Part shown: positions 16,386 to 43,283 of the stretch, in pieces | How the letters are laid out: each line of letters starts with the position of its first letter | Position numbering within the stretch: position 1 is the stretch's first letter | Translations under genes and position numbers: made by a program | Source: a virus | Reading direction: 5' to 3' (one strand) | DNA: 57,537 nt | Virus record (IMG/VR): IMGVR_UViG_3300031539_000033 | The notes under the pieces: generated by a model | What the model was told of the DNA's origin: nothing | Seen by the model: only the letters and a program-made list of their open reading frames with translations | The model's database searches: none

Positions 16386-16525
16386 GGCGAGAGCACAAAG
16401 CGAATAACACGCCCGGTCAGCCGCCTAGCTAGCGGCAGGCCGTGAAGCTTCATCACCCCTCGTTCTCGGCCGAGAGAGACCGGGGGGTTTCTATTTGGCC
16501 GGGCGTGGTGACTCATAGAGGCGAT

Positions 16526-19500: not shown

Positions 19501-19663
19501 CTACTGCCCGTTCATTCCGCTCTACACCGCTCCGGCGTTTGTCAACCCGGATACCCTCTGTGAGACAGTTGCGGTGATGAGCCGCTTCGGCTACTCCAAG
19601 GTCGTAGGCAACAGCCTTGCGACCGTCACCTGCCAGCCGGCTGTTCAGGGCGTGGGTTGGTAG
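16526..19663 (+). CDS. Prohead protease - scaffold-like linker - major capsid protein fusion
   Basis: 1045 aa. NGRVYPKGLF...GEGDHP...QVSSR resembles the T4 gp21 (S77) protease. The acidic, Pro-rich middle contains EELQKLIQEAV. The C-terminal ~450 aa carries ELMSVQPMTKSTGVVHFLDFLY, a gp23-like capsid motif. Confidence 0.7.
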   Translation: MPKEYLACVASEKKSGKSLADAKRICAIAYHKRHGKTPQEAAGETLDMAQVRDSIEAQIRAALERGDEDGATELRILLEQADSVVMETPRKVREQAFPDARASIYAMDDGQEFPALPVPAETSPLMEVYVRIDGSYEADMRDIRKAIKDGYQSFGSEEEWGPSLEATFGNRVVVSGGQGQLYRAAWKRGEDGTVSLEDIRQVRAVLRVDDAEAIRTAPPAGDGEATLAGDVPAQAETTELLETYTAPVRIVAEKDTTTTAGSTDHLMTVECLLGIADTPTKNGRVYPKGLFESIVAESKEGTARSKRWLGEGDHPADGRPRLMDTVCTPWRDLRLEGNHLLGATDVINTSKGADVQRLVRNGVPVQVSSRTAAITTTEVRDGQTVEIVDEKTALANLGGWDFVLGAAAHEGDEVAGVRNFRERDGQPAAAASAPSSSDVPGETIDEVLDEMTTEELQKLIQEAVAKGTTAGVQVLMETKGDPPAAGADPPKVDGEEPKPKTETKEPDKLSEMSGRIDSLAEVVTTYVQGQADEKKAEEKAAALKLATTAIMETDEVKAWEPPARKLMEQRLAEVTEVDQLQPTYERTERTLQEIGLLIINRPGGMGITAAHVASTPEKSREDRAKEFQLGVLSPRFLPESREEVLDLLCEGIPDNGLHSSTDPDDPVARALGGDAPFHGYHPGNPNHVFRTVVENVIRMYPNYLMANLRQYRPQFAMLEWTGTTNVAQTVPYVLPIIRQVWARLQWVMELMSVQPMTKSTGVVHFLDFLYDPTLGNPAIPGEFCSDYAQYVSEQATIPQVKLSLTHADITMDTKKLRAQWSSEVRQNLRADHGIAIEAEMVNFMADEIAREVVALLMNTMRTAADPAGNVTAGNVNFGCLLPAAGYVELGTWQKELYRHILQADGLVRAQRRARTNWAVAGSNALIRLMRLESWSATTVDAEAAEWEVGINRVGTLDGQPKYKVYGADPDFWPTELILVGRKGADWYDSGMVYCPFIPLYTAPAFVNPDTLCETVAVMSRFGYSKVVGNSLATVTCQPAVQGVGW

Positions 19664-19701
19664 TCTGAACGGTACCGACTGGACTGACTGACGCAATGAG
19701 T

Positions 19702-19730
19702 GGGGAGGGCGGCGATCTGTCGCCCTCCCC
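19702..19730 (+). terminator. Perfect GC hairpin after the capsid gene (attenuator or terminator-like)
   Basis: ggggagggcg / cgccctcccc 10-bp stem with a 9-nt loop; no U-tract. Confidence 0.45.
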
Positions 19731-19749
19731 TACATTCCGGGAGCCTCGG

Positions 19750-21852
19750 ATGTCAGAAACGGTAAAGGTACGAAATACGTCCAGGGTCGATCAGCTTTCG
19801 GGCATTTGGTTGATTCGCGCGGGCGAGACAACGGTTCTGCCAATTAACGCACTAGGCGGTTTCGGGTCCTCGGTAGAGGTCATCGACGATCCGACCACAT
19901 CGAATATGACGCTCTATCGAACCCCCTGTATGCCGGGTTGTGGGCATTCCCTCTGCACACTCTCACGGCAAGTCACTCTGGCACTGCAACGCATGGGCTT
20001 CTCGGTGGACCGGCAGACGTGGCGAGCAAATCGTGACCAGCCCCCGATAGGAAAGAGTCTGCTCTGCAACGCGGGGACATTCGAGGGGCCGTCCGGTTCC
20101 TGGTCATGGTTTCATTTCGACAATAGCATCGCGCCACGTAATCACGTCGCGTACTTCTTAGAGCACTTCACGGGGAACATCTGCGTAAGCGGTGCCGTGC
20201 GAGATGCCCTGAGTGCGGCAGGGGTATCGGAGGACCGCCTGCGGGTCATTCCGAATGGAATCGATACATCGCTGTTTTGTCCTGACGGTCCGATTATGGA
20301 TATTGGCGGCAACTCATTCATCTTCGCCATGGTCGGCGCTATGTCGCCTCGCAAGGGCGTTGATGTCGCGCTGGAGGCTTACGGGCAGGCATTCAAGCGT
20401 TCCGACAAAGTTCTGCTCGTAGTCAAGAACTACGACTATGGCCGCGATGCTTGGTGCCGGGAGATCATTGCCGAATGGCGGAAGCGACTCGGCAGTAAGG
20501 CACCGCGGGTCGAGTATATATATCAGATGGGCATGGGCAATTCACAACCGCCATGGATGGATAGCGAAGTTGCTGCATTCTACCGGCGCGCCGCGCAGCA
20601 CGGCGCGTATCTCGCGCCAGCACGAGTCGAAGGGTTCGGCTTGACGGGATTGGAGGCGCTGGCCTGCGGCTGCCGACTCGGTACTACCGGGTGGAGCGGG
20701 CAACTCGAATATGCTACAGATGAGAACGCGCACTTGTTCCCCTACATGATGGCCCCGAGCAACAACAACCTCGGTCTCTATGAGGCTGACGAAAGGCCGC
20801 TGTGGGCCGAACCCGACCTCGCGGACGTCGCCGACTGGATGCGGCGGGTATTCGAGGAGTCGCCCGACGAGTTGAAACAGAGGGAGATCGCCGAGGACCT
20901 GCGGCAGCGATTCACATATGCGCGCATGGCCCGCGGTATCGCCGATGTCTTGGGACTGAAGGAGCGCCGAGGACCCGAAACCGTCCGCGAGTCTGTTCCA
21001 GGGACTCCACTCGCGAAATCCAGCGGTGCCGCGGTTCTCGGCGCCCCCAGTCCGCCAGGGATGGAAACGCTCGGCGTAGGTATCCCCACGAGAGATAGAC
21101 CGGGATACCTCGCGATCTTACTATCGGCGCTCTACGTGCAGACGAAGCGCCCGAATGCCATCTGTATCGTGAATGATGGCGAACCAACCTTACGAGACAA
21201 TTCCGCCGTCAAACAGATGGTCGAGCGCTGGGAGCAGAGCGGTATCCCGTGCGATATAGTCCAGGGTTCGGGAAGGGGTGCCAGTCCGAACCATCAAATC
21301 GCGCTAGAACATCTCGGGACCGATCTCGTCCTAAGAATTGACGACGACCTTCTGCCAGCCCGACCGGATTTCATAGAGCGTCTTTACCGCTTGATTGATA
21401 ACCAACCCGAAGTCGGGGCCGTCGGCGGCTGCTATCCCATGCACAGCGATGGAGTCCTGCATGAATACGGCCCTCTTGCCACCAAGCGAGGGATGACGAA
21501 TACGCTGGCCGATCTGCTGGCCGGCCATGCGAGGCTGCAGTTCTGGCAGTTCTCCGACGAGGCGGTCGTGGAGTGCGAACACTTATATTCGACGTGGATG
21601 TATCGGGCGAGTGCGCTCCAGGAGGTCGGCGGGTTCGCGGATTGCTATAGCCGGTTCGGACAGCGGGAAGAATCCGATGCGAGCGTTAGGTTGCACCTTC
21701 TCGGTAAGAAGAAGTTACTCGTTGACACCCAGGCCCTCGCCTGGCATTTCCTCGCTCCAGGTGGCAGACGGCCCGAGGGTACGCGGGAGAGGGCGCTCGC
21801 TGATGATAAGGTATTCCGCGCAAGGGTCGCGCAGTGGAGGGCGCAGGCATGA
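19750..21852 (+). CDS. Bifunctional glycosyltransferase (GT4-type GT-B domain + GT2-type GT-A domain)
   Basis: PARVEGFGLTGLEALACG (GT4 E-x7-E region); LGVGIPTRDRPGYLAILLSALYVQT...VNDGEP...RIDDDL (GT2 DxD). The ATG at 19696 would place the hairpin inside the ORF. Confidence 0.8.
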   Translation: MSETVKVRNTSRVDQLSGIWLIRAGETTVLPINALGGFGSSVEVIDDPTTSNMTLYRTPCMPGCGHSLCTLSRQVTLALQRMGFSVDRQTWRANRDQPPIGKSLLCNAGTFEGPSGSWSWFHFDNSIAPRNHVAYFLEHFTGNICVSGAVRDALSAAGVSEDRLRVIPNGIDTSLFCPDGPIMDIGGNSFIFAMVGAMSPRKGVDVALEAYGQAFKRSDKVLLVVKNYDYGRDAWCREIIAEWRKRLGSKAPRVEYIYQMGMGNSQPPWMDSEVAAFYRRAAQHGAYLAPARVEGFGLTGLEALACGCRLGTTGWSGQLEYATDENAHLFPYMMAPSNNNLGLYEADERPLWAEPDLADVADWMRRVFEESPDELKQREIAEDLRQRFTYARMARGIADVLGLKERRGPETVRESVPGTPLAKSSGAAVLGAPSPPGMETLGVGIPTRDRPGYLAILLSALYVQTKRPNAICIVNDGEPTLRDNSAVKQMVERWEQSGIPCDIVQGSGRGASPNHQIALEHLGTDLVLRIDDDLLPARPDFIERLYRLIDNQPEVGAVGGCYPMHSDGVLHEYGPLATKRGMTNTLADLLAGHARLQFWQFSDEAVVECEHLYSTWMYRASALQEVGGFADCYSRFGQREESDASVRLHLLGKKKLLVDTQALAWHFLAPGGRRPEGTRERALADDKVFRARVAQWRAQA

Positions 21853-22820
21853 TTCTCGTAGTAGGCATTGACGGCTACTCCTACGACTGGCGGCACTGGC
21901 TGGAGGAAGACGGCTTCCATACCGGCGTTCTGGATTCCCCGCATGCACTATCGGGTCCCGCCTGGACGAGCATCTTCACGGGGTTGACGGCGGAGGGGCA
22001 TGGTATCCCGCACGTCCCACAGCCGCGAATGCTTAAGGGCCTGAAGCGGCCGCCCTATGTATGGGACCACCTCGCGGCCGCGGATATGGAAACGGTGGCG
22101 ATCAATGTGCCCTTCACGTACCCGCCCCGGTTGGTGCGGCGGCTTCTCGTCTGCGGGTATCCCGCGCCCGAAAAGAATCGGACATTCCCGCGGCAGGCGG
22201 CGGTGGATTGGGCATGGCGCGACCTCGACCTCTACTACGCGCATCAAGGCGAGCCCTCCTGGGATTTCCTCGCCTGTCCAGACAAGGACCTGATGGAGAC
22301 TTGCCATGCTGCCCGGTGGGCACTCGCGCACAGATTCCTCGTGGAACTCAAGAAGGGGCAGCCCGATCTCGCCATTCTCTGTTTGACGGACCTGGACAGA
22401 CTCGCGCATTATGCCTATCGGACGTTCCGGCAGAAGCGGACCCTGAAGAGCATCGTGGCGGATATACGGGTGATGCTGCAGCGGTTCGAGTTCACTCTCT
22501 ACCCCGAATGGACATTCATTGTTTCCGACCATGCGCTGGATTTGACCGATGAACCCCGCGAGGGGGATGGCTGGGGTCTATGCCATGGGCCGAACTACCC
22601 GGCGACGCGGCGCGGAATCATCGCCTACAAGGGCCCACAGGCACGGCCAGTCGAGAATTTGGAAGTGAGTGTAGAAGACGTTACTCCCACGCTGCTCTAC
22701 CTGCTCGATGCGGCCCCCTCACGGCGGATAGAGGGGATAGCATTGACGCAGATCACCGAGGGCGGGGCGGTAGACGAGGCCGAAATTCGACGACAACTGG
22801 AGGGTCTAGGTTATGCCTGA
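21849..22820 (+). CDS. Alkaline-phosphatase superfamily enzyme (type I phosphodiesterase / nucleotide pyrophosphatase-like)
   Basis: ILVVGIDGYSYD...LSGPAWTSIFTGLTAEGHGI...FIVSDHA. ATGA overlap with the GT gene. Confidence 0.7.
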   Translation: MILVVGIDGYSYDWRHWLEEDGFHTGVLDSPHALSGPAWTSIFTGLTAEGHGIPHVPQPRMLKGLKRPPYVWDHLAAADMETVAINVPFTYPPRLVRRLLVCGYPAPEKNRTFPRQAAVDWAWRDLDLYYAHQGEPSWDFLACPDKDLMETCHAARWALAHRFLVELKKGQPDLAILCLTDLDRLAHYAYRTFRQKRTLKSIVADIRVMLQRFEFTLYPEWTFIVSDHALDLTDEPREGDGWGLCHGPNYPATRRGIIAYKGPQARPVENLEVSVEDVTPTLLYLLDAAPSRRIEGIALTQITEGGAVDEAEIRRQLEGLGYA

Positions 22821-23511
22821 GGGCAAATGGGACCCAGGGACTTCGATGGACGCGCTCTGGGACCGACTCGCGAAAGAGAACTCGACGAGTGCCATCTGCT
22901 ACCGGGCGAGTCCCGAATGGTTTGAGGAGAGCGGGCAGAGGGACGCCAAGTATCTCGCCGGCCTGGTCGATTTCTTCTTCGAGGATCGTGCCGCGGTGAC
23001 GGTTCTCGATATCGGCGGGGGCACCGGCAGGACGGCCAAGTATCTCGCCCCAGTCGTCGGGACCTACCACCTGCTCGACGTAAGCGGCGAGATGCTGCGG
23101 CAGGCCGCCGAGCGGATGCCAATTATGACGCAGGGTGGGAAGGTCGTGCTCGTAAAGGGCAGCGGATATTCGCTGGAAGCCATCAAGGATGGTGCTATCC
23201 AGTTTGCTTTCTCCCACATGGTCTTCCAGCACATGGACAGAGAGGTAGTGGTCCGGTATCTGCGCGACCTGCCGCGCGTTCTGACTGACGATGGCATAGC
23301 ATGGCTTCAGGTTCCAGCGATGCGCTATCCGCAGCGATTCGAGGAGGCTGACCGGGGCGACTGGCCGGCGAACTTCCGGCGCTGGTATCCCGGCGAACTG
23401 CTTGAGGTTTGCATGAGGGCGGGGCTCTCTATAATCGCGGCGGACTGCGACGCGCTAGAAGTGATCGTTGCGAAGCCCCCGGCGGTGCCATGGCTTGGCG
23501 GGAGCGACTGA
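22813..23511 (+). CDS. Class I SAM-dependent methyltransferase
   Basis: VTVLDIGGGTGRTAKYL...LLDVSGEML (motif I and post-I). Confidence 0.8.
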   Translation: MPEGKWDPGTSMDALWDRLAKENSTSAICYRASPEWFEESGQRDAKYLAGLVDFFFEDRAAVTVLDIGGGTGRTAKYLAPVVGTYHLLDVSGEMLRQAAERMPIMTQGGKVVLVKGSGYSLEAIKDGAIQFAFSHMVFQHMDREVVVRYLRDLPRVLTDDGIAWLQVPAMRYPQRFEEADRGDWPANFRRWYPGELLEVCMRAGLSIIAADCDALEVIVAKPPAVPWLGGSD

Positions 23512-24134
23512 TGGACACGGCGACGATACCACAGACGCCCGACAACGAACTGATGGCGTTGAAATGTACCCCGCACCCTAAACGGGTTTGGGGTTACCTA
23601 CAGGAGGATGAGGCGCAGCGTCTTACGTGGCTCGCGGCGCGGGTGCCCGCAGACAAGGCTATCGTAGAAATCGGTTCCCTCCGCGGGCGGTCGACGTGCC
23701 GGCTCGGATTGGGTGCCGCGGCCGGTCTGGGCGCGCACGTCTGGGCTATCGACACCTGGGGACCGTATAGTCCGGCAAGCGGGCTGAAGGGCGGGGACCA
23801 ACACCGCGAGCGCTTCGATTTCAACATTGACCTTTTCGGGCTGGGGGCGCAGGTGACGCCCATTCGAGCCGACTCCAGGGAAATCGCGAAGGTCTGGCAG
23901 CGAGAGATTGGACTGCTCTTCATTGATGGCGAGCATACCTATGAAGGGATACGCGGCGACTACGAGGGGTTTCATGAGCATGTAGTAGCAGGCGGCTGGT
24001 TGGCTATCCATGACTATTACGAGGACTGGGTGGACATCATACGGTTCGTCAATGAGACGGTCTTTCCATCCGACGATTGGGAGACCGCGAACCTGCGATG
24101 CACCCTGCTTACCATGAGGAGACGAGAGAGCTAA
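23511..24134 (+). CDS. Class I SAM-dependent methyltransferase (Methyltransf_24/CmcI-like)
   Basis: IVEIGSLRGRST...AIDTW...LLFIDGEHTYEG...GGWLAIHDY. TGATG coupling; alternative ATG at 23490. Confidence 0.7.
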   Translation: MDTATIPQTPDNELMALKCTPHPKRVWGYLQEDEAQRLTWLAARVPADKAIVEIGSLRGRSTCRLGLGAAAGLGAHVWAIDTWGPYSPASGLKGGDQHRERFDFNIDLFGLGAQVTPIRADSREIAKVWQREIGLLFIDGEHTYEGIRGDYEGFHEHVVAGGWLAIHDYYEDWVDIIRFVNETVFPSDDWETANLRCTLLTMRRRES

Positions 24135-24364
24135 TGGCCATGGAGGTAACCGCCAAACGGGATGCCATGGTGGTTCGTCAGGCGGGGCAGTCGGGAACCG
24201 GAACTATGTATCGCCGCTGGTTCGATACCTGCCTGCACAACCGACCGGACTGCCCCCGGATTTCCGGAGAGGACGTGATTGCGATTTCGGAAGGACAGGC
24301 GCGGAGCATGATGGGTTGTGGTTGGTACCCCTGCGCCGTTTGCGCGCCAGGGTTATTCTGGTAA
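24134..24364 (+). CDS. Small Cys-containing protein
   Basis: 76 aa. TAATG coupling. ...CGWYPCAVCAPGLFW. Confidence 0.5.
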   Translation: MAMEVTAKRDAMVVRQAGQSGTGTMYRRWFDTCLHNRPDCPRISGEDVIAISEGQARSMMGCGWYPCAVCAPGLFW

Positions 24365-24374
24365 GGATATCCAC

Positions 24375-25337
24375 TTGAATCTCGCCCACATAGCTTTCTA
24401 CAAGCGGAGCGAAGGACACCCTGGCGGTGTCCCTTTGTTTGGCCATTACGTGGAGCAGCAGCTCGGCGCGCGGCTTTACTCGTGGTCGGACATGCCGCAG
24501 AAGGCGCGAGTAGACGAGGCTGGCGCGGCTGATCTGCTAGGGCGCTGGCTTGTCTCATCGGGCGCGCTGAACGACATTGAGGCGGTTATCGTGGACGGTT
24601 TCTGGGGCCGCGGACTGGTGGACTTTGACGGCCCGGTAATCTCGGTGGCCCATGGAACCTGGAAGGGCATTGGACTGGCCTGCAATTCAGCGGAGGCTAT
24701 GCGGCTCGGCGAGATACAACAGGCCGAATACCGGCGGCTACCCACCGTAGCTGTTAGCCACTATACCAAGTGGGAGTTGCAGGGTATGTACGGAGTCGAG
24801 CCGGCGGCGATCATCGCCAACGGACTGGACCTAGACGAGTACCAGCCGCGGCAGCATCCGGCGCGGGAACGGCCCATCGCAATCTATCCGAGCGACGCCA
24901 TGCCGAAGGGCGGGGATGTGATAGCGGCACTCGCGAGGAGGCGGCCCGATATCGAGTTCCGACTGATCGGGGCGGGGATCGGAGCAGAGGCCGAAGCTAT
25001 AGCTGCTGGAGACATCTTCGTCTCCCCGTCCCGCGCAGATGGCTGCCCCTATGCGGGATTGCAGGCGTTGGCTTGTGGACTACCGATTGTGGCGAGTGAT
25101 GTGGGACTGTTCGCCGACATCGAAGGCGGCATGATGAATGGCCTGCCAGTTGGGGAGACAGTGCCGGTGGTAGCGACGGATGACGCGGCTGTCGAGCAGT
25201 GGAGTCAGGCATTGACGCGGGTTCTAGCGCGGCGGCAGGCGGTTTCGCTGGGCGCGCGAGCCTGGGCCGAGGAGTTCGGCGGATTAGATAGGTGGGAGGC
25301 GGACTGGCGAGAGTTTCTCCAGGGAGCGATGGGCTGA
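24375..25337 (+). CDS. Glycosyltransferase family 4-like (GT-B)
   Basis: FVSPSRADGCPYAGLQALACGLPIVASDVG. TTG 24375 lies 7 nt after AAGGA; the ORF is also open from ATG 24318. Confidence 0.7.
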   Translation: MNLAHIAFYKRSEGHPGGVPLFGHYVEQQLGARLYSWSDMPQKARVDEAGAADLLGRWLVSSGALNDIEAVIVDGFWGRGLVDFDGPVISVAHGTWKGIGLACNSAEAMRLGEIQQAEYRRLPTVAVSHYTKWELQGMYGVEPAAIIANGLDLDEYQPRQHPARERPIAIYPSDAMPKGGDVIAALARRRPDIEFRLIGAGIGAEAEAIAAGDIFVSPSRADGCPYAGLQALACGLPIVASDVGLFADIEGGMMNGLPVGETVPVVATDDAAVEQWSQALTRVLARRQAVSLGARAWAEEFGGLDRWEADWREFLQGAMG

Positions 25338-25639
25338 TGCCGACGACTATGCGAGACATCACGCGGAAAACGTCCGCTGCTCACGCCTCACCTCCCGTTC
25401 AGGGGCAGACGGCCTCGCCAACCGACCTGCCCCTGGACACCTGCGGCGCCTGTGAAGCGTCCCTATTCGGCCAGTTCGAGCCGGTGGCCGCGGGCGATAC
25501 GGGGCTCTATATGAGCCAGGACCGTAGAGCGCGCGAGGAAACCGGAACCTCGCAGCCTCGCGACTTTAAGTGCCGGCAGTGTGGACGAATCATGCGGCGG
25601 GTTCCCGACGATATCGACGCGCAGGTAATCGGTATGTAA
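25337..25639 (+). CDS. Small zinc-ribbon protein
   Basis: 100 aa. TGATG coupling. CGACE...CRQCG. Confidence 0.55.
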   Translation: MPTTMRDITRKTSAAHASPPVQGQTASPTDLPLDTCGACEASLFGQFEPVAAGDTGLYMSQDRRAREETGTSQPRDFKCRQCGRIMRRVPDDIDAQVIGM

Positions 25640-26441: not shown

Positions 26442-26813
26442 ATGGCAGACGCTGAACTTCAATCACTGCTTACCCATACCGCCGATATCTACTACCTCGA
26501 TACGGGCGAGGCAGTGGATGGGCAGGTCCTGGAGGGTTACCCGGATGCCCCGGACCTCGCCGACCACCCCTGCGCTATTCACCAGGATGGGAAGATTCTG
26601 ACGGAGAGTCCGGTCGGCTACCTGATCGAGAGCGATGCCATCATGTACTCGGAGGATGCAGTCATTCCCGAACGCGCTAAGGTCGTCTGGCAGAATCGCA
26701 TCTTCTTCGTGAACGGGACCCCAAGTCGCTATCACGACTACCTCGGGCCGACCCCGAACATACCGCACCTGCTGGAGATCGGACTCCGGGAATCAAAGGA
26801 CCAACCGGCATGA
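26442..26813 (+). CDS. Putative head-closure / head-tail joining protein
   Basis: 123 aa. Position between the adaptor and the gp10-like gene. C-terminal ...VVWQNRIFFVNGTP...LLEIGLRE pattern. Confidence 0.45.
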   Translation: MADAELQSLLTHTADIYYLDTGEAVDGQVLEGYPDAPDLADHPCAIHQDGKILTESPVGYLIESDAIMYSEDAVIPERAKVVWQNRIFFVNGTPSRYHDYLGPTPNIPHLLEIGLRESKDQPA

Positions 26814-27358
26814 TTGGCGTTGCGGTGAGAATCGAAAAGGCAGACGAGCTTCGCAGGTGGGCCGATGATCTACCGGACCAGTTTCAGAAGCGGTCATCGC
26901 TCCTAGTCGGCTCCTATGGGCTCCGCATAGAGCGGGAGGCGAAGCGACGGACACCCGTGGCGACGGATATCCTACGTTCCAGTATCCACACCGACATCAG
27001 TCGGCAGGGGAAGCAGACGCGAGCGAAGGTCGGCACCGACGAGGACTACGGCCCGTATGTAGAGTACGGGACCGGACTCTACGGGCCGCAGAAGCGGGCC
27101 TACGAGATCAAGCCGAAGACGAAGAAGGCGCTGGCGTTTACGGCGCGAGCCGGAACGCAATTGGCGACGGGTCGGGCACTGTTCCGCTCCAAGACGGGCC
27201 GGTTGGTACTGAGCCGCAAGCGGGGTGCCAAGACCATCGTCCGCAAGGTCATCCATCCCGGCATTCACCCGCAGCCATACCTGCATCCGGCGTTTGATAA
27301 GTATGTGCCGTTCTTTATGAATGACCTTCGGCAACTCGTGACGGGATTGGGGGGGTGA
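26810..27358 (+). CDS. HK97 gp10-family neck/tail-joining protein
   Basis: 182 aa. TPVATDILRSSIH...DEDYGPYVEYGT... typical of the HK97 gp10 family. ATGA overlap. Confidence 0.7.
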   Translation: MIGVAVRIEKADELRRWADDLPDQFQKRSSLLVGSYGLRIEREAKRRTPVATDILRSSIHTDISRQGKQTRAKVGTDEDYGPYVEYGTGLYGPQKRAYEIKPKTKKALAFTARAGTQLATGRALFRSKTGRLVLSRKRGAKTIVRKVIHPGIHPQPYLHPAFDKYVPFFMNDLRQLVTGLGG

Positions 27359-27359: not shown

Positions 27360-27824
27360 ATGGCGATCCTGACAACCGGGTTTAACACGGCAGCACAGGC
27401 GGCTGCGATCCTCACCAAGCTCCGCACAGAGTTGGCGGGCATGGGGGTCGATGTTGTAACTCGTGGCCGCCTCTGGCGCCTGCCCGACAGACCCTGCGTG
27501 GTGCTTATCGGCCCCTCTATCGAGATCGAGTCCTTGGGGATCGGCGTCGAGGAAGGGGTATGGCATTGGCTCATCCTGATCGCCCGCGATATCGGCCACA
27601 ATGACCGGCGCGCCGACTTGCTCGATACCTGGGGCGATACCGCCATGGCGGCGCTCCTCGACCTCACGCGGGAGACCGCCGCCTTCGTCGTACAGGGCGG
27701 CGACGGACCGGGGCGCGTGGAGGACCAGCGCCTGCTAGGACTGATTCAGCAGCATGGCGAGCAGATAGACCCCATACTGCTGGAGATGACGACCCGCAGG
27801 GAGATCAACCCGCCATCATGCTAA
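27360..27824 (+). CDS. Putative tail completion/terminator protein
   Basis: 154 aa. Position only. Confidence 0.35.
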   Translation: MAILTTGFNTAAQAAAILTKLRTELAGMGVDVVTRGRLWRLPDRPCVVLIGPSIEIESLGIGVEEGVWHWLILIARDIGHNDRRADLLDTWGDTAMAALLDLTRETAAFVVQGGDGPGRVEDQRLLGLIQQHGEQIDPILLEMTTRREINPPSC

Positions 27825-28849
27825 GGATGCGCGCGATACGGAGCTATGGTGCCCAGAAGGTTCGATACCCTCTGGGCGTCGTCCATTTCGACGAGTCCAA
27901 GGGCTGGCTTGCGCGAGTTCCCGAGTCCCTCGCGAAGGAATTGGTCGACGCTGGCCAGGTAGAGATTCCACGAGCAGAGGAACTATGCGTGGGTCGGTAT
28001 CTCGTGCGCCGGCGTTCCGGCTTCGGAGACGTTCTATGCCTTACCCCAGCCGCGCGGATGCTGATGGATAATGGGGCCGAATGCCAGATCATCACCCACC
28101 CGAACTACGCGCCGATGATAAACGGCCTTGGGAATGGTATCCACTGGGAATCGCCCGTGCATTCCGTGATCATGGACGGCTGGCTCGAACATCATCCGGG
28201 CCGGACCGAGAGACCGGCGGCGCTCTGTTTCGGCGACTACTGGAATTTCGACATTGAGGATGCGCGGCCCCACTTCGCGCTTACCGAGCAGGAAGTCGCT
28301 ATGGGTAGGGAGGGCGTCGAAGGCTGGCGTCGCGAAGGCGAGCCCGTCGTCGCGGTCTTTATGAAGACGGGTTGGGAGTCGCGGCGATACCGCGGGATGC
28401 TGCGCGTCGCGAAGGACCTGGCACACGAGGGCTGTGCCGTCGTCGGCTTCGGCGATGAGATTCTGCCCTGCTGTAAAAAGCCGCCGGCGATGGATATCCG
28501 GTCTTTGGCGGGGCTCCTGGCGGCTTGTGACCTTGTTGTTTCGGGCGACACAGGGCCGATGCATCTAGCGGCTGCCCTGGGGGTGCCGTCCGTCGCCGTC
28601 TTCTGCGCCACTTCCGCGGCCGGGTCTGTGGGGCCGCGTTACGATGTAACAGCACTTGAGCCCGAGGGGCTTGACTGCTGGCCGTGCTGGAATGCCGACT
28701 GCAAGGTCGGCGAGTTGGACGTCCCTGGTTCTTGCGTTTCGGCTGTAGAGCCGACGCAGGTCGTTTCCGCGGCGCTTGAGCGACTGCGCTCGCCTGGGCC
28801 GCGAATAGACCCTCAAGGAGACAGGGACGATGAAGGGAGCATACGGTAG
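27818..28849 (+). CDS. Glycosyltransferase family 9 (heptosyltransferase-like)
   Basis: LRSLAGLLAACDLVVSGDTGPMHLAAALGVPSVAVF and the C-terminal CWPCWNADC...CV are the GT9 hallmarks. Confidence 0.8.
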   Translation: MLRMRAIRSYGAQKVRYPLGVVHFDESKGWLARVPESLAKELVDAGQVEIPRAEELCVGRYLVRRRSGFGDVLCLTPAARMLMDNGAECQIITHPNYAPMINGLGNGIHWESPVHSVIMDGWLEHHPGRTERPAALCFGDYWNFDIEDARPHFALTEQEVAMGREGVEGWRREGEPVVAVFMKTGWESRRYRGMLRVAKDLAHEGCAVVGFGDEILPCCKKPPAMDIRSLAGLLAACDLVVSGDTGPMHLAAALGVPSVAVFCATSAAGSVGPRYDVTALEPEGLDCWPCWNADCKVGELDVPGSCVSAVEPTQVVSAALERLRSPGPRIDPQGDRDDEGSIR

Positions 28850-29690
28850 GTGTTTCTATGGTACACAGGGTGCGAAGGGAATCCCTGCGGTGGGCTATTC
28901 CGCCCTGGGCATTATCGACCGGCCGCACATGAATGTGCCGAGCGGTATCGAGCCGCTCTATTCGGTCGGTGACTGGGACCCCGTCGAACTCAGCGAAGGG
29001 ATGACGCTGGCGGAGGTCGGCCTTAGCATTACGGCCGTAGAGGACCCACACTTCCTCCAGTACGCCAAGCGAAGCGCGGTCACTGGCGAACTCCAGTGGC
29101 TGACGATCAAGATCGGATACCATAAGGGCGCGGATGTCTACCGCGCGATCATCCAGGACTGCAAGATCGGCGATATCACGATGCGGTGTGACGCCGGCGG
29201 CCGCCTGAATGCCGACGTAAACCTGATCGGCGGGAAAGTCGCACAGCTCGCAGCCGACCCCGGTGATATGTCGTTCTTCTCCTCTCGTGCCTACCGCTGG
29301 TTCGAGATGACATGGGACGAGACGCGGGACCTGCGGGCGTTCGAGTTCTACTGCCGCAATGGCCTGGAACCCATGCCGGTGATCGCGGGGACCGTGACGA
29401 CAAGGGACCCTGAGCGCATATGGGACTTTCTCGATGAAGGGCCGTCAGAGATCGGTGGGACACTGACCTATTTTCTCGCCGATGCAGACGTCGATCTTCA
29501 GGACTGCCTGCTAGCGGGAGCCGATCACGTTATGACATTTTGTAGTTGTTCCGATGTCAGCCCCGCGCAGACTATGACGCTGACGCTGAACGGCCTGAAG
29601 GCACGGAATGCCGATCTGCAGATTCCGGCTCGCGGCGACATCGTCGTCGAGATGCCATATCTGCTGACGGACTGGACGCTGGATGGATAG
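28830..29690 (+). CDS. Major tail (tube) protein
   Basis: 286 aa. Directly upstream of the chaperone/frameshift pair and the tape measure. Position-based call. Confidence 0.6.
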   Translation: MKGAYGRCFYGTQGAKGIPAVGYSALGIIDRPHMNVPSGIEPLYSVGDWDPVELSEGMTLAEVGLSITAVEDPHFLQYAKRSAVTGELQWLTIKIGYHKGADVYRAIIQDCKIGDITMRCDAGGRLNADVNLIGGKVAQLAADPGDMSFFSSRAYRWFEMTWDETRDLRAFEFYCRNGLEPMPVIAGTVTTRDPERIWDFLDEGPSEIGGTLTYFLADADVDLQDCLLAGADHVMTFCSCSDVSPAQTMTLTLNGLKARNADLQIPARGDIVVEMPYLLTDWTLDG

Positions 29691-29723: not shown

Positions 29724-30239
29724 ATGGGACTAGAAGACGCGCCGGAGTTCTCCGAGACACCGGAGACAAAGGCGGAACCGCCAACCGAGGACGAGGATAT
29801 GAACCTCGTCGCCAAGATGCGCGTAGGGCCGCAGGAGCAAACGTTCTACCTGCCCGAGGGGCGCAACTCCGATGGCACCGTCCGACTCAGCGATACCTAC
29901 TTTATCAGACTGAAGGGCTGGACGGGAACGCAGCGCGACCAGTACCTATCCGCGGGGCAGAAGTACGAACTCGAAGTGCCTCGCGGCCGTCGACAGACAA
30001 GGAAGACGGTTCATAGTCGCTTCGATATGGATATGGTCGAGCAGCTCCGCGTTCTTGTCAACCTGTCCGTGGTCGATTTCAAGTTGATTCACGATGGCAG
30101 GGATGTGACCTTCCGCGAGCAGGGCGCTAACTGGAGTGTGTTCCGCGACCTCAGTCCTGATGTGACGGACTGGGTACGGGATACGATCCGCGAATTCCAG
30201 GGTATCGAGATGGAGGACGGGGACGAGGGGGAAGCCTAG
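29724..30239 (+). CDS. Tail assembly chaperone (gpG-like)
   Basis: 171 aa, acidic. SD aggaggcgagtctc upstream of the ATG. Precedes the tape measure. Confidence 0.7.
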   Translation: MGLEDAPEFSETPETKAEPPTEDEDMNLVAKMRVGPQEQTFYLPEGRNSDGTVRLSDTYFIRLKGWTGTQRDQYLSAGQKYELEVPRGRRQTRKTVHSRFDMDMVEQLRVLVNLSVVDFKLIHDGRDVTFREQGANWSVFRDLSPDVTDWVRDTIREFQGIEMEDGDEGEA

Positions 30240-30583: not shown

Positions 30584-33500
30584 GTGGAACGAAGACGACT
30601 TGAAGTTGTGCTTGAAGCCGTAAACCGCGCAGAGGGCCCGCTGAGACAGTTCGGCGGGTCGCTCCAGCGCACTATCGATCACGTCCAGCGCCTGCGGCGG
30701 GAAGCCGGCCGCACCATGCGCGAGGCCGGGGAGAGTATGTCTATGGCGGCTGGACGCGCTTCGATGCTTGGTCGGGCCGTCCAGTTCATCGGCGTATCCC
30801 TGCGGGCACCGCTGGTCGGTATCGCCGCGCTCGGAATCCGAGCCCTAGATGTGTTCCGCGGTATTCTCACCGCCGTGGTGAACCTCGGCCGGAGCATCGT
30901 GACCTGGATTGCCGAGACCGGCGTAAGGGCACTCCAGGCATTCACGCGAGCGGCCCTGATCGCGGGACTAGCGGCGGCTGCGGCATTTACGATATCGACG
31001 CGGGAAGCAGCCTCGTTCGAGATGATGATGCGCTACGTCAACACCATCACTCGGACGACGGACGCTAGCCTCGCCCAACTCTCTGCCGACGCCCTCGCGA
31101 TAGCCCGCGACATCGGCAAGGCTCCTGCCGAAGTTGCCCGTGGTCTCTACGACGTAGCTTCGGCCGGATTCAAGGGTGCCGAAGGCCTGAAGATCGTGCG
31201 CGTCGCGGCTGAGGCCAGCGTTGCCGGTATGACGGACGTGGCCACCGCCTCCCGCCTGATCGTTAGTACCCTTCAGGCCTATGGCATGGCTGCCGAGAAG
31301 GCTGGCTATATCTCGGATGTGATGTTCAAGACGGTCGAACTCGGCATTATCACGTTCGGAGATTTGGCCCAGGCCATCGGCCCCGCCATTGCTACGGCGG
31401 CAGCCGCAGGAGTGCAGATAGAAGAAGTCGGTGCGGCATTTGCGACGATGACAAAAGCAGGTATTGACGCGTCGATGACCGGGACCTCGCTCCAGCGGAT
31501 TATGCTAAGCTTCCTCGATCCCGCGAAGGAGTTCGCGGACGCACTTCGGACGGTCGGCGTAGAACAGGCCTCCACCTTCATCCGCACCAAGGGACTCGCC
31601 GGCGCTATCGACGCCCTTAATCGACTGGCCGCAGGCAACCCCGCGGCCCTTGCTAACATGGGCTTGGAAATGCGGGCATTACGAGCAGCCATGTCGCTGA
31701 CGCGGGGCGAGGCTTCCAGCTTCTCGTCGGACCTGGCAGCAATTAGTCAGGCGGCGGGCGCGACTGGTAGTGCTCTGGCGCAGGTTGCAGCTACTGTCGG
31801 CTATGCCTGGGATAGGTTCAAGGCCCGCGCGCAAGCTATGTTTGTGACTGTCGGTTCTAGTTTCGCCGGATTGGTGCGGAAGGTCCTGGAGGGTGCAGGC
31901 GATATCGCCGACCGGATGTCCGCGCTTGCTGAAGAGATTTCCCAAAGCGACCGCTGGCAGCGGCTCGTCGATACCGTGGGGCTTGCCATGGACGCCGCGG
32001 GCGAGAAGGTCGGCACCTGGCTCGACTGGCTCTCGGAGAACTGGGACACCGTATGGGATGCCGTCGCGGACCGGGTCGGCACGGCCGCCAACTTTGTCGT
32101 CATGTGGATCGGTCGGATCGTCGGCGCTATCGGCTATCTCATTGAGCAGCGGCAGGGCATATGGGACTGGGCGCGGACCTTCATGGATGCGATGGTCGCG
32201 GTGGGTCAAGCCATCGTGCAGGAGGTCCTAGGCCGACTGGATACATTGGCTAAGAGCCTAGGGACGACGATCAAACTTCCCCTGGGCATGGAACTTGACG
32301 TGGCCGCCCTGAAGACACAGATCGCGGGGGCGGTCGCGGGAGGTCTAGCGGGTGCTCCACTAGGGCCGTGGGGTGCGGCAGGCGGGGCGGCTACCGGCTT
32401 CCTCGCTACCGGCAAGGCATATGAGGCGGGGCGCGCGGGACTGGCGGCGTTGGGCGAAAGCGTCGAGGAATGGGGTACAACCGCTTCCGCCTTCTTCGAC
32501 GAGCAGCGGGCGCGGTTTGAGCAGGGCCAGGGCTTCTTCGGCGGCATGAAGGGCGCGGCGATAGAACGAGGGGCGGCCTACTCCGAGTGGCTCTATGGTC
32601 TGCGGGAGGCCGTATCCGGACTCGAACTCGGGCGCGGGCGCGAGGCCCAGGGCGATATCCGCGAGTTGGGCGAGGGCGTATGGGCCTTCGGGGACGTTGC
32701 CGATTCGATAGAGGAGGCGACCGCCGCCCTGAATCGTGGGGGGCAACAGCTCGCAGAGAAGGCTGACGGCTTGACTGCGGCGTCACGGGGCGTCGCTACC
32801 GGGGGAGAGGCACTGGTAGGGGCGGCGGGCTCTTTGAGCGGCGCAGCGGGCAACCTGGGGGCAGCCGCGGGGACTCTGGCGGACGCGGCCAAGAGCATCC
32901 CTGGCTATCTGCGTGGCGCGGAGATGGCGCAGCGATACGGCCTTATGGCGAGCATTGCCGAGGCCAGGGGGAAGCCCGAAGCGCGCGCTGGTTTCCTGCG
33001 CGAACAGGAGGCATGGCAGGAGCGGCAAGTTAGCGCGGCAGTCGAGGCCTTCCGTAACAACCCGGCGGATATTCGGCTTCTTCAGATATGGGAGCGGGCC
33101 GAGACCGATCTCGCGGCGATCCGCAAGGCGCTCGAAGAGCAGGATCGGATGGCGGTCGATATGCCGGACTGGTGGCCGAGGGCAGATGTACTCGGCCCAC
33201 CCGTCGGCGTGGCGATTCAGGCGGCAGAGGTGCCGGCACAGACCAACTTCCAGGTTGCCCGCCCGCCCGTAGAGTGGGGCGACTTCCCCCTGGCTTACGA
33301 GCAGGCGCCCGGCGATAATCCCGACTGGCAGATAGATCGGCTACCGACCCCCGGCGACAATCCGAACTGGCGAATCCAGGATGTGCCCGCGCCCGGCGAT
33401 AACCCCGACTGGCAGAGGGGGGCGGACGTGCTCGGCGCGGCCGTCGCACAAGGTCAGACAGCGTTACTCCAGCAACTCGCGAGGATGGATGACAGTAAGG

Positions 33501-34027
33501 TCCAGGGATGGAACGAGGAGCAACCGTCGCCAGGACTCCGAGGGCAGGAAGTCTTCGCAAGCGAGTTCCGCCTCCCCGATGACTGGATGCCTCCGGGTGC
33601 CGCAACGCATCCCGACGAACTTCTGAGTGGAATGGACCGCATAGAATCCGCGGTACTGCGGGCCGCGCGAGCACAAATCCCCGTCACCTTTGACGATCTT
33701 CCGCTCATTCCAGAGCGGGCGCCCCGAGAGATTCCCGACTGGAGGCCGGACGAGATAACGGCCCCCGCCGCGATCCCCGACTGGCGGATGGATCGGACGC
33801 CGATTCTGGGTGATAACCCCGACTGGCGGCTCGAAGACATACCCGCGCCTGGAGACAGACCCGATTGGATAGCGTCGAGGAGGCCGACCGAGGCGAATGA
33901 ACCGGGCATCGTGATCAACGTCGGCGAGGTGAACTCGAAAGAGCAACTGAAGCGTACGGCCGATGAAGCGATAGACGTATGGTGGGACCGACATGTCGAG
34001 CACGAGGAGACGTACCAAAACTACTAG
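30584..34027 (+). CDS. Tape measure protein
   Basis: 1147 aa, Ala/Gly-rich with hydrophobic segments, following the chaperone pair. C-terminal P(G)D(N)PDW tandem repeats. Confidence 0.85.
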   Translation: MERRRLEVVLEAVNRAEGPLRQFGGSLQRTIDHVQRLRREAGRTMREAGESMSMAAGRASMLGRAVQFIGVSLRAPLVGIAALGIRALDVFRGILTAVVNLGRSIVTWIAETGVRALQAFTRAALIAGLAAAAAFTISTREAASFEMMMRYVNTITRTTDASLAQLSADALAIARDIGKAPAEVARGLYDVASAGFKGAEGLKIVRVAAEASVAGMTDVATASRLIVSTLQAYGMAAEKAGYISDVMFKTVELGIITFGDLAQAIGPAIATAAAAGVQIEEVGAAFATMTKAGIDASMTGTSLQRIMLSFLDPAKEFADALRTVGVEQASTFIRTKGLAGAIDALNRLAAGNPAALANMGLEMRALRAAMSLTRGEASSFSSDLAAISQAAGATGSALAQVAATVGYAWDRFKARAQAMFVTVGSSFAGLVRKVLEGAGDIADRMSALAEEISQSDRWQRLVDTVGLAMDAAGEKVGTWLDWLSENWDTVWDAVADRVGTAANFVVMWIGRIVGAIGYLIEQRQGIWDWARTFMDAMVAVGQAIVQEVLGRLDTLAKSLGTTIKLPLGMELDVAALKTQIAGAVAGGLAGAPLGPWGAAGGAATGFLATGKAYEAGRAGLAALGESVEEWGTTASAFFDEQRARFEQGQGFFGGMKGAAIERGAAYSEWLYGLREAVSGLELGRGREAQGDIRELGEGVWAFGDVADSIEEATAALNRGGQQLAEKADGLTAASRGVATGGEALVGAAGSLSGAAGNLGAAAGTLADAAKSIPGYLRGAEMAQRYGLMASIAEARGKPEARAGFLREQEAWQERQVSAAVEAFRNNPADIRLLQIWERAETDLAAIRKALEEQDRMAVDMPDWWPRADVLGPPVGVAIQAAEVPAQTNFQVARPPVEWGDFPLAYEQAPGDNPDWQIDRLPTPGDNPNWRIQDVPAPGDNPDWQRGADVLGAAVAQGQTALLQQLARMDDSKVQGWNEEQPSPGLRGQEVFASEFRLPDDWMPPGAATHPDELLSGMDRIESAVLRAARAQIPVTFDDLPLIPERAPREIPDWRPDEITAPAAIPDWRMDRTPILGDNPDWRLEDIPAPGDRPDWIASRRPTEANEPGIVINVGEVNSKEQLKRTADEAIDVWWDRHVEHEETYQNY

Positions 34028-42224: not shown

Positions 42225-42361
42225 TTATTGCATCACTGGCATTGGCCATCCTGGCTCTACATATCGCGCTCCGAGCATACGGGATGGCGCGGGATATAGA
42301 GCAAAGGGTCGCCGAGATCGAGGAGCCGGATGGCAAACGAAACAGCAGGAGGCCGACATGA
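42221..42361 (+). CDS. 46-aa single-pass membrane protein (below the track cutoff)
   Basis: Hand translation MIIASLALAILALHIALRAYGMARDIEQRVAEIEEPDGKRNSRRPT. Its stop overlaps the next ATG. Confidence 0.4.
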   Translation: MIIASLALAILALHIALRAYGMARDIEQRVAEIEEPDGKRNSRRPT

Positions 42362-42870
42362 AGACATGGGTTGTAGCAGTAGTTGTAGTAGCGTTGTGCG
42401 CGGGACCAGTATGGGCGGCGAAGCCGCAGCAGGTGAAGCTCAATAAGGCACCCGCTCTCATCGAGGGGAGTATCGACCCCATCGTGACAGTTTCCCCAAC
42501 CGTACTCACCCTGAAGGCGGGTGAACAGGGGACCGTCACCTGGACGATTCAGGTCCCGGCGAGTGAACCGAATGCGGTAACGAACGTCACGTGGGCGTGG
42601 CCGCACCCAGGCGGGTTTCTGCCCATCTCGGGGCAGTTAGAGAAGCCCGGCTACACGATACCGGGATACTCGGTCTCAAATCAAGCGACGATGACCTGGG
42701 ATGGCGGCGGATACGCCGAGAGCAATATCGTGACGGTAGAGGTTCTGCCAGTAGATATGCCGCCGATTCAGTTAGACCTATTCATGAGCGAGGGCACGTG
42801 GAACGCGTGGATTGAAGAAATCCTGCCGGGCAATCTCGCGACCGTTGCGATCACCATAGCGGCTCAATAA
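42358..42870 (+). CDS. Secreted protein (Sec signal peptide)
   Basis: MKTWVVAVVVVALCAGPVWA/AKP. Confidence 0.65.
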   Translation: MKTWVVAVVVVALCAGPVWAAKPQQVKLNKAPALIEGSIDPIVTVSPTVLTLKAGEQGTVTWTIQVPASEPNAVTNVTWAWPHPGGFLPISGQLEKPGYTIPGYSVSNQATMTWDGGGYAESNIVTVEVLPVDMPPIQLDLFMSEGTWNAWIEEILPGNLATVAITIAAQ

Positions 42871-42908: not shown

Positions 42909-43283
42909 ATGATGAGAGCAGTTCTGTTGGCAGTAGTTGTGTTGGCGTTGTGCGCGGTGCCGGCGATGGCAGCGGGCGTTGACCTCCCGGTAACGGGAGG
43001 CACGGCCGTCTGGTTGCAGCCCTTCGACGCGACTCCAGGGAGCGCGGGCGCAGCCATTTCTCTGCTGCTCCCCGAAAAGATCGTTGGGGAGACAGTGGCG
43101 GAACTAATTGCCTTCGACATCATCGTTCACCCCGAAGGGGACGCGGTACGCATTGACCCCGGTTTGTCTATCTCCCTCAAGACAGACCTCGGCGTCCCCA
43201 TAAAGGTGGGGTTGGTGCTGCTCCCATTGACTGACTACAAGTTCGGCGGGTTCGTCGGGATGCAGATTTTCCAGACGTTCTGA
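42909..43283 (+). CDS. Secreted protein (Sec signal peptide), leader paralogous to the ORF at 42358
   Basis: MMRAVLLAVVVLALCAVPAMA/AG. About 30 nt of the leader are near-identical to 42358's. Confidence 0.65.
   Translation: MMRAVLLAVVVLALCAVPAMAAGVDLPVTGGTAVWLQPFDATPGSAGAAISLLLPEKIVGETVAELIAFDIIVHPEGDAVRIDPGLSISLKTDLGVPIKVGLVLLPLTDYKFGGFVGMQIFQTF

Follow-up and report, generated by a model that had tools for sequence, protein, structure and literature searches.

A GT9-family glycosyltransferase encoded directly upstream of the putative tail-tube gene in a rare lineage of uncultured temperate siphophages, and its possible role in virion glycosylation

Background

The only phages known to us to glycosylate their virions with enzymes of their own are a few actinobacteriophages, in which antibody recognition is thereby altered, and cytoplasmic heptosylation of proteins is known to us only for autotransporter adhesins. 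No phage heptosyltransferase acting on virions was found in the literature. [quoted passage not shown] 2023, as related in passages of PMC11600133 and PMC12619734). According to these passages, GTs and an O-methyltransferase modify the virions of phages of the Che8, Corndog and Myrna type, with C-terminal regions of both the capsid and the tube protein carrying the glycans. Neither a GT9 enzyme nor a gene slot between the tail terminator and the tube was found described in the accessible portions of the literature on this system, the primary study aside.

The characterised enzymes of the GT9 family all act on LPS cores, with the exception of the distantly related BAHTs, which include TibC and AAH (PMC5713226). 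In the LPS enzyme WaaC (HepI), positively charged loops of the N-lobe (R60, R120 and their neighbours) hold the Kdo2-lipid A acceptor (PMC9068772), and mutagenesis has established that residues D13, K192 and D261 matter (PMC5713226). TibC is a protein O-heptosyltransferase, comprising an N-terminal beta domain, a reduced N-lobe of four strands and a Cys4 iron finger (PMC4358343). TibC and AAH demonstrate that cytoplasmic O-heptosylation of a protein, with ADP-heptose as the donor, is within the capability of this fold. A beta-hairpin thumb, a dodecameric ring and a nearby gene for an autotransporter substrate are further traits of the BAHT family.

The phage and its lineage

The window, by which the whole analysed stretch of 57,537 nucleotides is meant, represents a complete 57.4-kb genome of a siphophage, which is temperate as judged by an integrase identified in the scan of its ORFs. 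No tRNA genes were found in the window, and clear spanins were not seen in its lysis region. An unusual feature is a 1073-aa fusion of a prohead protease (S77) and a Gp23-like major capsid protein (16442..19663, plus strand; PF07068, E 3.8e-38; PF03420, E 3.8e-9), which was used as the marker defining the lineage. This fusion was found in only nine clusters of a protein database of 5.8 billion clusters, and named organisms were absent from the capsid-protein search matches. The lineage is rare, uncultured and temperate. The only hint to the host is provided by a 42-kb phage-like contig, binned as a Dehalococcoidia MAG, which carries the only close relative of the glycosyltransferase described below that a search of 185,579 species genomes brought up. 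To our knowledge, the Dehalococcoidia are not known for heptose-containing LPS. The mycobacteriophages belong to a lineage unrelated to the present phage, and their hosts probably belong to a phylum unrelated to its own.

A GT9 gene in the tail module

The ORF at 27818..28849 (plus strand, ATG start) encodes a 343-aa heptosyltransferase-like protein, hereafter GT9, which matches PF01075 (Glyco_transf_9; E 1.9e-13, 50.7 bits; cut-off 22) over residues 223-267 only. The motif CDLVVSGDTGPMHLAAALGVPSVAVF occupies residues 237-262, while CWPCWNADC...C contributes four cysteines (C287/C290/C295/C306), so that both the GT9 signature and the cysteine tail, which a previous sequence-only reading had recognised inside the tail operon, are borne out. 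Sixteen close homologues, a dN/dS of 0.14-0.20, which indicates purifying selection and is similar to that of the flanking structural genes, and an AF2 model with a pLDDT of 92.9 (pTM 0.91) together show that the ORF is a genuine gene and did not arise by chance. A profile of the GT9 clade matches WaaF, 3TOV and WaaC among the PDB sequences (E 3e-8 to 3e-5). The clade comprises 17 clusters among the 5.8 billion, with the bit score dropping from 369 to 90 between its members and the cellular GT9s. It is phage-restricted among what was found, and a tblastn search with GT9 against 50,697 GenBank phage records gave no match.

All genes of the surrounding tail module are likewise on the plus strand. 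Upstream, a gene for an HK97-gp10-like tail-completion/Neck1 protein (26810..27358; PF04883, E 1.4e-7; phrog_5, E 4e-15) is followed by a 154-aa ORF (27360..27824) occupying the slot of a tail terminator/tail-completion gene. This ORF has no Pfam, PHROG or PDB-sequence match, and Pfam searches with seven of its homologues also yielded nothing. Downstream of GT9 lies a gene for a putative major tail (tube) protein of 286 aa (28830..29690), assigned on the basis of a sub-cut-off match to PF18906 (Phage_tube_2, E 3.9e-5), a family for which its homologues have precomputed matches, a match to phrog_290 ('minor tail protein', E 3e-9; 5/5 relatives) and its place ahead of the chaperone and tape-measure genes. 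A profile search with the tube protein against the PDB sequences gave no match. The tail assembly chaperone (29724..30239) is identified by phrog_3096 (E 2.8e-4) and by its position between the tube and tape-measure genes, and the tape measure protein (1147 aa; 30584..34027) by PF10145 (PhageMin_Tail, E 3.7e-29). The GT9 gene had been described as wedged between the tail-completion gene and the major tail protein gene. Its position directly upstream of the putative tube gene stands, but the adjoining upstream ORF matches no family and the tail-completion/Neck1 gene is situated one gene further up.

The start of GT9 overlaps the stop of the 154-aa ORF by 7 nt (ATGCTAA) and its 3' end overlaps the tube gene by 20 nt, exactly as previously given. 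Translational coupling of GT9 to the tube gene, which had been proposed from the latter overlap, is weaker than claimed, as the tube gene has a strong ribosome-binding site of its own (AGGAGA, 8 nt upstream, within the GT9 gene) and the two genes are ~11 to 155 nt apart in some relatives. Promoter-like or terminator-like sites were not found between GT9 and either flanking gene. As part of the late head-tail transcription unit, GT9 would be made as the virion proteins accumulate.

The order 150-aa ORF - GT9 - tube occurs in all members of the lineage that were found, with GT9 identities of 33-96%, and this slot is kept despite insertions of other genes close by. The L119 locus was read through P0135 and the L118 type probably through P0136. 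The placement of GT9 directly upstream of the tube gene is therefore a lineage-wide trait, shared by every relative with the protease-capsid fusion.

Architecture and active site of GT9

The AF2 model of GT9 has a GT-B fold with two Rossmann-like lobes, preceded by a clade-specific beta-rich extension (residues 1-55) in which four strands and a helix are formed by residues 4-44. The N-lobe (residues ~59-175), which contains the GD motif (D71), is shortened and has three strands, while the C-lobe (residues ~177-325) contains R189, D244-T-G-P-M-H249 and the Cys4 knuckle. The top Foldseek matches in the PDB are all GT9 or TibC structures (E 1e-12 to 1e-7), among them 3TOV, TibC, WaaC and WaaF at E 1e-12 to 1e-8. 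Structure prediction and comparison with WaaC/WaaF and TibC, which had been suggested as a check, thus support a GT9-family GT-B fold in which the catalytic and donor residues D71, R189, D244 and H249 are kept. No membrane anchor is present on the protein.

Across 13 clade members, with identities down to 34%, D71, R189, D244, G246, P247, H249 and the four cysteines are invariant. D71, R189, D244, G246 and H249 correspond to D13, K192, D261, G263 and H266 of WaaC, respectively. The catalytic Asp of the GD motif and the D261-T-G-x-x-H266 motif of the LPS enzyme are therefore kept, while the position of K192 is taken by an invariant Arg. The segment with WaaC E222, which we take to be a ribose contact, is deleted. 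As a result of this deletion of the ribose-binding helix and the replacement of K192 by Arg, the donor of the phage enzyme could differ from that of WaaC. Conservation of the catalytic Asp and the DTGxxH motif leads us to expect a cytoplasmic, metal-independent inverting mechanism. GT9 is thus predicted to be an active, soluble, cytoplasmic GT-B glycosyltransferase which would have kept the inverting-heptosyltransferase machinery, namely the GD-motif Asp, the D-T-G-x-x-H sugar/diphosphate motif and, where WaaC has its phosphate-contacting Lys, an Arg.

Comparison with LPS and protein heptosyltransferases

GT9 shares its Pfam family and GT-B fold with WaaC (HepI) and WaaF (HepII) (CAZy GT9/PF01075), but differs from both in its additional 55-residue N-terminal module and in being encoded in a phage tail operon. 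The WaaC segments 60-64 (R60/W62/R63/K64) and 116-120 (W116/R120) align to gaps in GT9, K136 aligns to a Pro, and the N-lobe comprises 99 residues as opposed to 160 in WaaC. The scores against the NCBIfam LPS heptosyltransferase models TIGR02193 (36.3 bits, cut-off 185.3), TIGR02195 (36.9 bits, cut-off 134.6) and TIGR02201 (21.3 bits, cut-off 170.2) are far below the thresholds. With the acceptor loops deleted and the scores this low, GT9 is not an LPS-core heptosyltransferase. In the course of its divergence it appears to have lost the N-lobe loops for Kdo2-lipid A and to have gained the N-terminal module, and the loss of the LPS-binding parts suggests that a virion protein is probably decorated instead.

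TibC is the PDB match with the best TM-score and rmsd to GT9 (Foldseek E 1e-10, TMq 0.58, 4.5 A) and, as far as the predicted model can be compared, the phage enzyme is structurally at least as close to this protein heptosyltransferase as it is to WaaC/WaaF. A partial resemblance to the BAHTs TibC and AAH is seen in the beta-rich module at the N terminus, the small N-lobe and the Cys4 knuckle late in the C-lobe. The module is, however, 55 residues long in GT9 as compared to the 97-residue barrel of TibC, the cysteines are spaced CxxC-x4-C-x10-C rather than CxxC-x15-C-x11-C, and no counterpart of the beta-hairpin thumb of TibC could be identified in the monomer model. The Cys4 motif is almost invariant in the cellular GT9s as well, and is thus not a TibC-specific trait. 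TibC chains were absent from phmmer and profile searches of the PDB sequences with GT9 (E up to 1; up to 0.01 in a further profile search), and no Pfam match to an autotransporter family was obtained among the scanned ORFs of the window. GT9-like proteins of the same fold are predicted for uncultured phages represented in BFVD (annotated as RfaF, GT9 or Aah/TibC; Foldseek E 1e-12 to 1e-4), but these share just 13-16% identity with GT9 in structural alignments. IMG/VR contigs contain further GT9-like matches at 21-32% identity. When the genes flanking five other viral GT9-like genes were compared with PHROG, none received a structural-gene annotation.

Sugar donor and acceptor

The reading we favour, tentatively and at slightly less than even chances, is that the phage produces a late GT9-family enzyme which transfers the sugar of a host nucleotide sugar to a virion protein, most plausibly the tube. 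Transfer to the virion protein would take place before or during tail assembly, and the tail-tube subunit encoded directly downstream would be the likeliest acceptor. GT9 would then act on the tail side within a virion-glycosylation programme, the remaining enzymes of which are encoded next to the capsid gene. A more specific form of this reading, in which GT9 is a phage protein O-heptosyltransferase that heptosylates the tube or another tail protein during its synthesis, with the N-terminal module serving as a tube-recognition domain, is doubtful at present. If true, it would constitute the first protein heptosylation outside the bacterial autotransporters and the first heptose-decorated virion. 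A GT9 enzyme fixed beside the tube gene and devoid of the LPS loops would join phage virion glycosylation with protein heptosylation, would suggest that tail surfaces of unrelated environmental phages are deliberately coated with sugar, and would provide a compact enzyme-substrate pair that is directly testable in E. coli.

The family points to ADP-heptose as the most likely donor, and it is from the family only that we infer heptose as the sugar, as had been proposed before. No heptose-pathway genes occur among the window ORFs scanned, and relatives instead carry an epimerase/dehydratase gene which is closest to dTDP-glucose 4,6-dehydratase; its identification as a heptose 6-epimerase was rejected on this ground. 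For the proposal that the tube, or another tail protein, is the substrate, an acceptor site was not found. Among 12 aligned tubes, no Ser/Thr column separates the GT9 carriers from the single relative lacking GT9, and the virion-protein scan revealed no Ser/Thr-rich C-terminal tail in either the tube or the capsid protein. The virion of the present phage in this respect differs from those of the mycobacteriophages, for which the available passages place the glycans on the C-terminal regions of both proteins.

Alternative functions

The window resembles the mycobacteriophages, as these are portrayed in the passages cited above, in encoding GT4/GT2 enzymes and methyltransferases beside the capsid gene. 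This capsid-proximal glycosylation cassette (19696..25337, plus strand), identified by Pfam matches, comprises a GT4+GT2 fusion (19696-21852), a phosphodiesterase-like protein (21834-22820), two SAM methyltransferases (22813-23511 and 23409-24134) and a GT4 (24318-25337), with the glycosyltransferases and methyltransferases situated between the capsid and connector genes. Cassette and GT9 occur together in L002, L005, L112, L119/L130 and L120, that is, in every lineage member in which both regions are readable, and no genome with GT9 but without the cassette was seen among the lineage members examined. L108, the sole relative with a homologous tail module from which GT9 is absent, likewise shows none of the cassette genes over the 10.8 kb that were read, and the GT4-GT2 scan matches do not include its contig. 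Because GT9 and the cassette co-occur and are both missing from L108, GT9 may belong to a common glycan pathway instead of serving the tube in particular. It might in that case contribute a sugar that initiates or branches a glycan destined for the capsid protein, for several virion proteins or for a carrier, and its adjacency to the tube gene would be a fixed insertion accident. We regard this as improbable, though far from negligible. The lack of a tube-specific acceptor signature also speaks for it, but the co-absence concerns a single genome whose head module has also been exchanged. GT9 is moreover kept in precisely the same place, between the 150-aa ORF and the tube gene, down to 33% identity, in spite of the insertions nearby, which would not be expected if position were of no consequence. 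The earlier suggestion that head and tail each have a dedicated modifier is consequently not established, given that the only GT9-less relative also lacks the cassette and fits a single shared pathway equally well.

Modification of a virion protein is also to be weighed against three functions outside the virion glycan. Conversion genes are normally located by the attachment site and have their own promoter, whereas GT9 is embedded in the late structural operon with overlapping ends and neither a promoter nor a terminator of its own. Together with the deletion of the LPS-acceptor loops, the low scores against the LPS models, the lack of a membrane anchor and the restriction of close relatives in 185,579 species genomes to one phage-like contig, this renders it unlikely that GT9 modifies the host envelope (a glycolipid, lipo-oligosaccharide, S-layer or cell-wall glycan) at a late stage, for example masking receptors to spare progeny from loss on debris, or acting in lysogenic conversion. 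The phage is nevertheless temperate, modification of O-antigens by temperate phages has precedent (PMC12619734), and LPS cores are the substrates of all characterised GT9s but the distant BAHTs (PMC5713226). Were the envelope the target, GT9 would represent an unusual late-operon surface-remodelling gene. A non-catalytic role, be it in tail assembly as a chaperone or in the virion as a minor component, is very unlikely. PnsB1, a plant NDH subunit with a GT9-like fold, is represented by chains among the fold and profile matches and shows that non-catalytic reuse of the fold occurs, and the slot occupied by GT9 is typical of assembly factors, but a purely structural protein would not be expected to keep the catalytic Asp, the basic residue that contacts phosphate and the D-T-G-P-x-H motif invariant over deep divergence. 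Least probable of all is that the GTs decorate modified cytosines of the phage DNA. Phage GTs, some of which add heptose, do act on 5hmC, and their clusters can adjoin structural genes, but the DNA GTs concerned are similar to T4 beta-glucosyltransferase, BshA and MshA, not to GT9 (bioRxiv 10.1101/2023.12.21.572611). The window does encode a C5 cytosine methylase (56360-57121), which counts in favour of this reading, but the ORFs scanned yielded neither a TET/5mYOX-like dioxygenase nor any other enzyme that forms 5hmC.

The GT9 gene within the late block

The window carries an exact 127-bp direct repeat at its termini (1-127 = 57411-57537), and on this evidence is a complete genome of ~57.4 kb, either circularly assembled or terminally redundant. 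A tyrosine integrase gene is present, while no tRNA genes could be found in the window and no sugar-nucleotide synthesis genes among the window ORFs scanned. Two DNA methylases are encoded, one of the N6/N4 type (9126-10469) and a C5 cytosine methylase of 253 aa (56360-57121), which matches the N-terminal half of the Pfam model only. The late block opens with a T4-like portal and a MuF-like protein, and includes a 1073 aa fusion of an S77 prohead protease with a Gp23-like capsid protein (16442-19663), an architecture found in only nine clusters of a 5.8-billion-cluster protein database. Next to the capsid gene lies a cassette (19696-25337) encoding a GT4+GT2 fusion (718 aa), an alkaline-phosphatase-superfamily phosphodiesterase-like protein, two SAM methyltransferases and a GT4 enzyme. 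Between this GT4 and an SU10-like adaptor, a 115-aa protein with two CxxC pairs is encoded (zinc-ribbon-like; 25292-25639), which has no family match and shares 41-51% identity with its counterparts in five of the five relatives compared. The adaptor is followed by a DUF3599 connector, an HK97-gp10-like tail completion/Neck1 protein (26810-27358), a 154-aa ORF in the terminator position (27360-27824), GT9 (27818-28849, +) and the putative tube gene (28830-29690, +). A chaperone, the tape measure and distal tail proteins are encoded 3' of the latter, with a right-handed beta-helix protein (PF13229; 38360-39607) at the distal end of the tail module and a holin/amidase pair thereafter. Two small ORFs downstream of this pair (42358-42870 and 42909-43283) have signal-peptide-like N termini (MKTWVVAVVVVALCAGPVWA... 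and MMRAVLLAVVVLALCAVPAMA...); no clear spanin pair was seen in the lysis region.

The GT9 ORF has an ATG start codon and a product of 343 aa. The GT9 signature and cysteine tail reported in the sequence-only reading were both recovered, with a match to PF01075 (Glyco_transf_9; E 1.9e-13; 50.7 bits against a Pfam cut-off of 22) aligning residues 223-267 only, CDLVVSGDTGPMHLAAALGVPSVAVF at residues 237-262 and a CWPCW-x3-C-x10-C tail. Likewise, the overlaps that it gave with the flanking genes, 7 nt (ATGCTAA) with the 154-aa ORF and 20 nt with the tube gene, are exact. No promoter-like or terminator-like site was found between GT9 and either flanking gene, and the AGGAGA ribosome-binding site of the tube gene lies 8 nt upstream of it, within the 3' end of GT9. 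Sixteen close homologues and a dN/dS of 0.14-0.20 (tube 0.08-0.11; 154-aa ORF 0.14) together indicate, from sequence comparison, that GT9 is a real gene. The label of tail completion given to the gene directly upstream must be moved to the preceding gp10-like gene, as no family assignment could be obtained for the 154-aa ORF. Naming the downstream product the major tail protein is reasonable, although the basis for this is a sub-threshold PF18906 match, phrog_290 and gene order.

Fold and conserved residues of the GT9 protein

The AF2 model of GT9 (96-sequence alignment; pLDDT 92.9, pTM 0.91) comprises four short strands and a helix at residues 4-44, which precede the first Rossmann strand (residue 60). 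Within the clade this N-terminal extension is conserved (F24, D25, A39); cellular GT9s, whose matches generally begin near residue 60, mostly lack it. Structural comparison with WaaC/WaaF and the autotransporter heptosyltransferases, as the sequence-only reading had proposed, gave only GT9 or TibC structures as top Foldseek PDB matches. These include 3TOV (E 1.5e-12), TibC 4RAP as the best geometric fit (E 1e-10, TMq 0.58, rmsd 4.5 A), and WaaC and WaaF (TMq ~0.50-0.52, rmsd 6-9 A). The sequence search matched the PDB chains of 3TOV, WaaC and WaaF, while TibC was not detected by sequence or profile search.

When mapped via the family alignment, the E. coli WaaC residues D13, K192, M242, D261, T262, G263 and H266 correspond to D71, R189, M225, D244, T245, G246 and H249 of GT9. 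D71, R189, D244, G246, P247 and H249 are invariant in thirteen clade members, down to 34% identity, and mutation of D13, K192 or D261 cripples HepI (PMC5713226). The positively charged WaaC loops which bind the lipid A-Kdo acceptor (R60/W62/R63/K64 and W116/R120; PMC9068772) are opposed by gaps in GT9, the N-lobe is 99 residues long compared to 160 in WaaC, and GT9 reaches 21-37 bits with the NCBIfam models of LPS heptosyltransferases I, II and III, whose cut-offs are 135-185. On these grounds, of the two halves of a heptosyltransferase, GT9 appears to retain the one for donor binding and catalysis and to lack the one for the LPS acceptor. In the loop that stands in for the WaaC E222 helix, a P-C-C triplet (residues 217-219; window ~28466-28474) is almost invariant among the sixteen closest clade members; the most divergent member of the clade (L120) lacks it.

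TibC, in which D110 serves as base, performs cytoplasmic O-heptosylation of an autotransporter (PMC4358343). GT9 resembles it in outline, in that its N-lobe is reduced and it has a beta module at the N terminus and an invariant Cys4 motif. However, this motif hardly varies in the retrieved cellular GT9s either, the cysteine spacing differs from that of TibC and there is no sequence match. TibC is therefore taken as a functional analogy, for a fold which can act on proteins, and not as a family assignment.

Distribution and synteny

The GT9 clade comprises seventeen clusters among 5.8 billion, with the next score falling from 369 to 90 bits, at cellular GT9s. An exhaustive profile comparison against 1.84 billion representatives yielded six clade representatives scoring at least 189 bits, followed by multi-domain cellular GT9s at no more than 146 bits. 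GT9 is absent from 50,697 GenBank phages, and the only close copy among 185,579 species genomes is on a 42,096-bp phage-like contig of this lineage (CAYGYF010000001.1; L002/L006). This contig was assigned to a MAG carrying the label uncultured Dehalococcoidia, which is a weak hint of the host or a binning artefact.

Within this uncultured lineage, the order ~150-aa ORF, GT9 and tube is kept wherever the context is readable, with one exception. It is shared by loci L001, L002-L004, L005, L087/L112 and L132, by 9/9 metagenome loci found in a search with the tube, and by L120, where capsid protein and GT9 identity are 40% and 33%, respectively. The overlap between GT9 and tube is usually 11-20 nt, with small gaps instead in L116 (~11 nt) and L114 (~155 nt). 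In L130/L131 the pair is intact despite the insertion of other genes upstream. In L130 (6133-9986; the ZHAN22-2 scaffold_196 phage) the gp10-like gene is separated from the terminator-position ORF by an insert of ~3.8 kb of further genes, among them one for a Laminin_G_3 protein (274 aa) and a 343-aa ORF, with the GT9-tube pair undisturbed. The exception, L108 (IMGVR_UViG_3300033149_004108, 1-10852), carries no GT9, and its tube gene comes immediately after the terminator-position ORF. Homologues of the gp10-like gene, the terminator-position ORF (53%), the tube (55%), the chaperone and the tape measure are all present. Its head module differs from that of the window, and no GT4-GT2 relative was found in the contig. 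Thus, in this sample, GT9 and the cassette appear to be present together or absent together. L108 represents a natural "knock-out" for comparison with its GT9-carrying relatives.

Predicted acceptor and donor

The best-supported reading, from sequence and model, is that GT9 would be an active, late-expressed glycosyltransferase with a phage protein, rather than the LPS core, as acceptor. Virion glycosylation is already known. According to PMC11600133 and PMC12619734, which cite Freeman et al. 2023, the capsid and tail-tube subunits of mycobacteriophages are modified by phage glycosyltransferases encoded next to an O-methyltransferase, and this by analogy offers a precedent for a protein acceptor. 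GT9-like proteins have also been annotated in uncultured phages; in the literature searched, neither a GT9 enzyme fixed between a terminator-position gene and a tube gene nor heptosylation of virion proteins was found described. The tube, which the sequence-only reading had suggested as substrate, is the prime candidate because its adjacency to GT9 is lineage-wide. The substrates of TibC-type heptosyltransferases are beta-helices, and the beta-helix protein at 38360-39607, likely a tail spike or depolymerase, is by this analogy an alternative candidate.

Against a tail-specific role, GT9 could form part of a glycan pathway shared with the cassette. Their co-occurrence fits a single pathway equally well, and no acceptor signature was found, with no Ser/Thr column of the tube separating GT9-carrying phages from L108 and no Ser/Thr-rich tails in the tube or capsid protein; we nevertheless consider a shared pathway rather unlikely, since GT9 keeps its place beside the tube down to 33% identity. 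Modification of the host envelope is less probable still, as GT9 lacks the LPS-acceptor loops and resides in the late structural operon. Although plant PnsB1 provides a precedent for a non-catalytic role, the catalytic residues of GT9 are invariant, which makes such a role highly improbable. A part in DNA hypermodification is hardly credible, with no 5hmC-forming (TET-like) enzyme among the window ORFs scanned.

As regards the donor sugar of the proposed protein-directed GT9, we infer it from the family only. A gene of relatives L119 and L120 considered as a heptose epimerase proved instead to be dTDP-glucose-4,6-dehydratase-like. This gene is added to the cassette in both, and its combination with the cassette hints at a methylated deoxyhexose-containing glycan.
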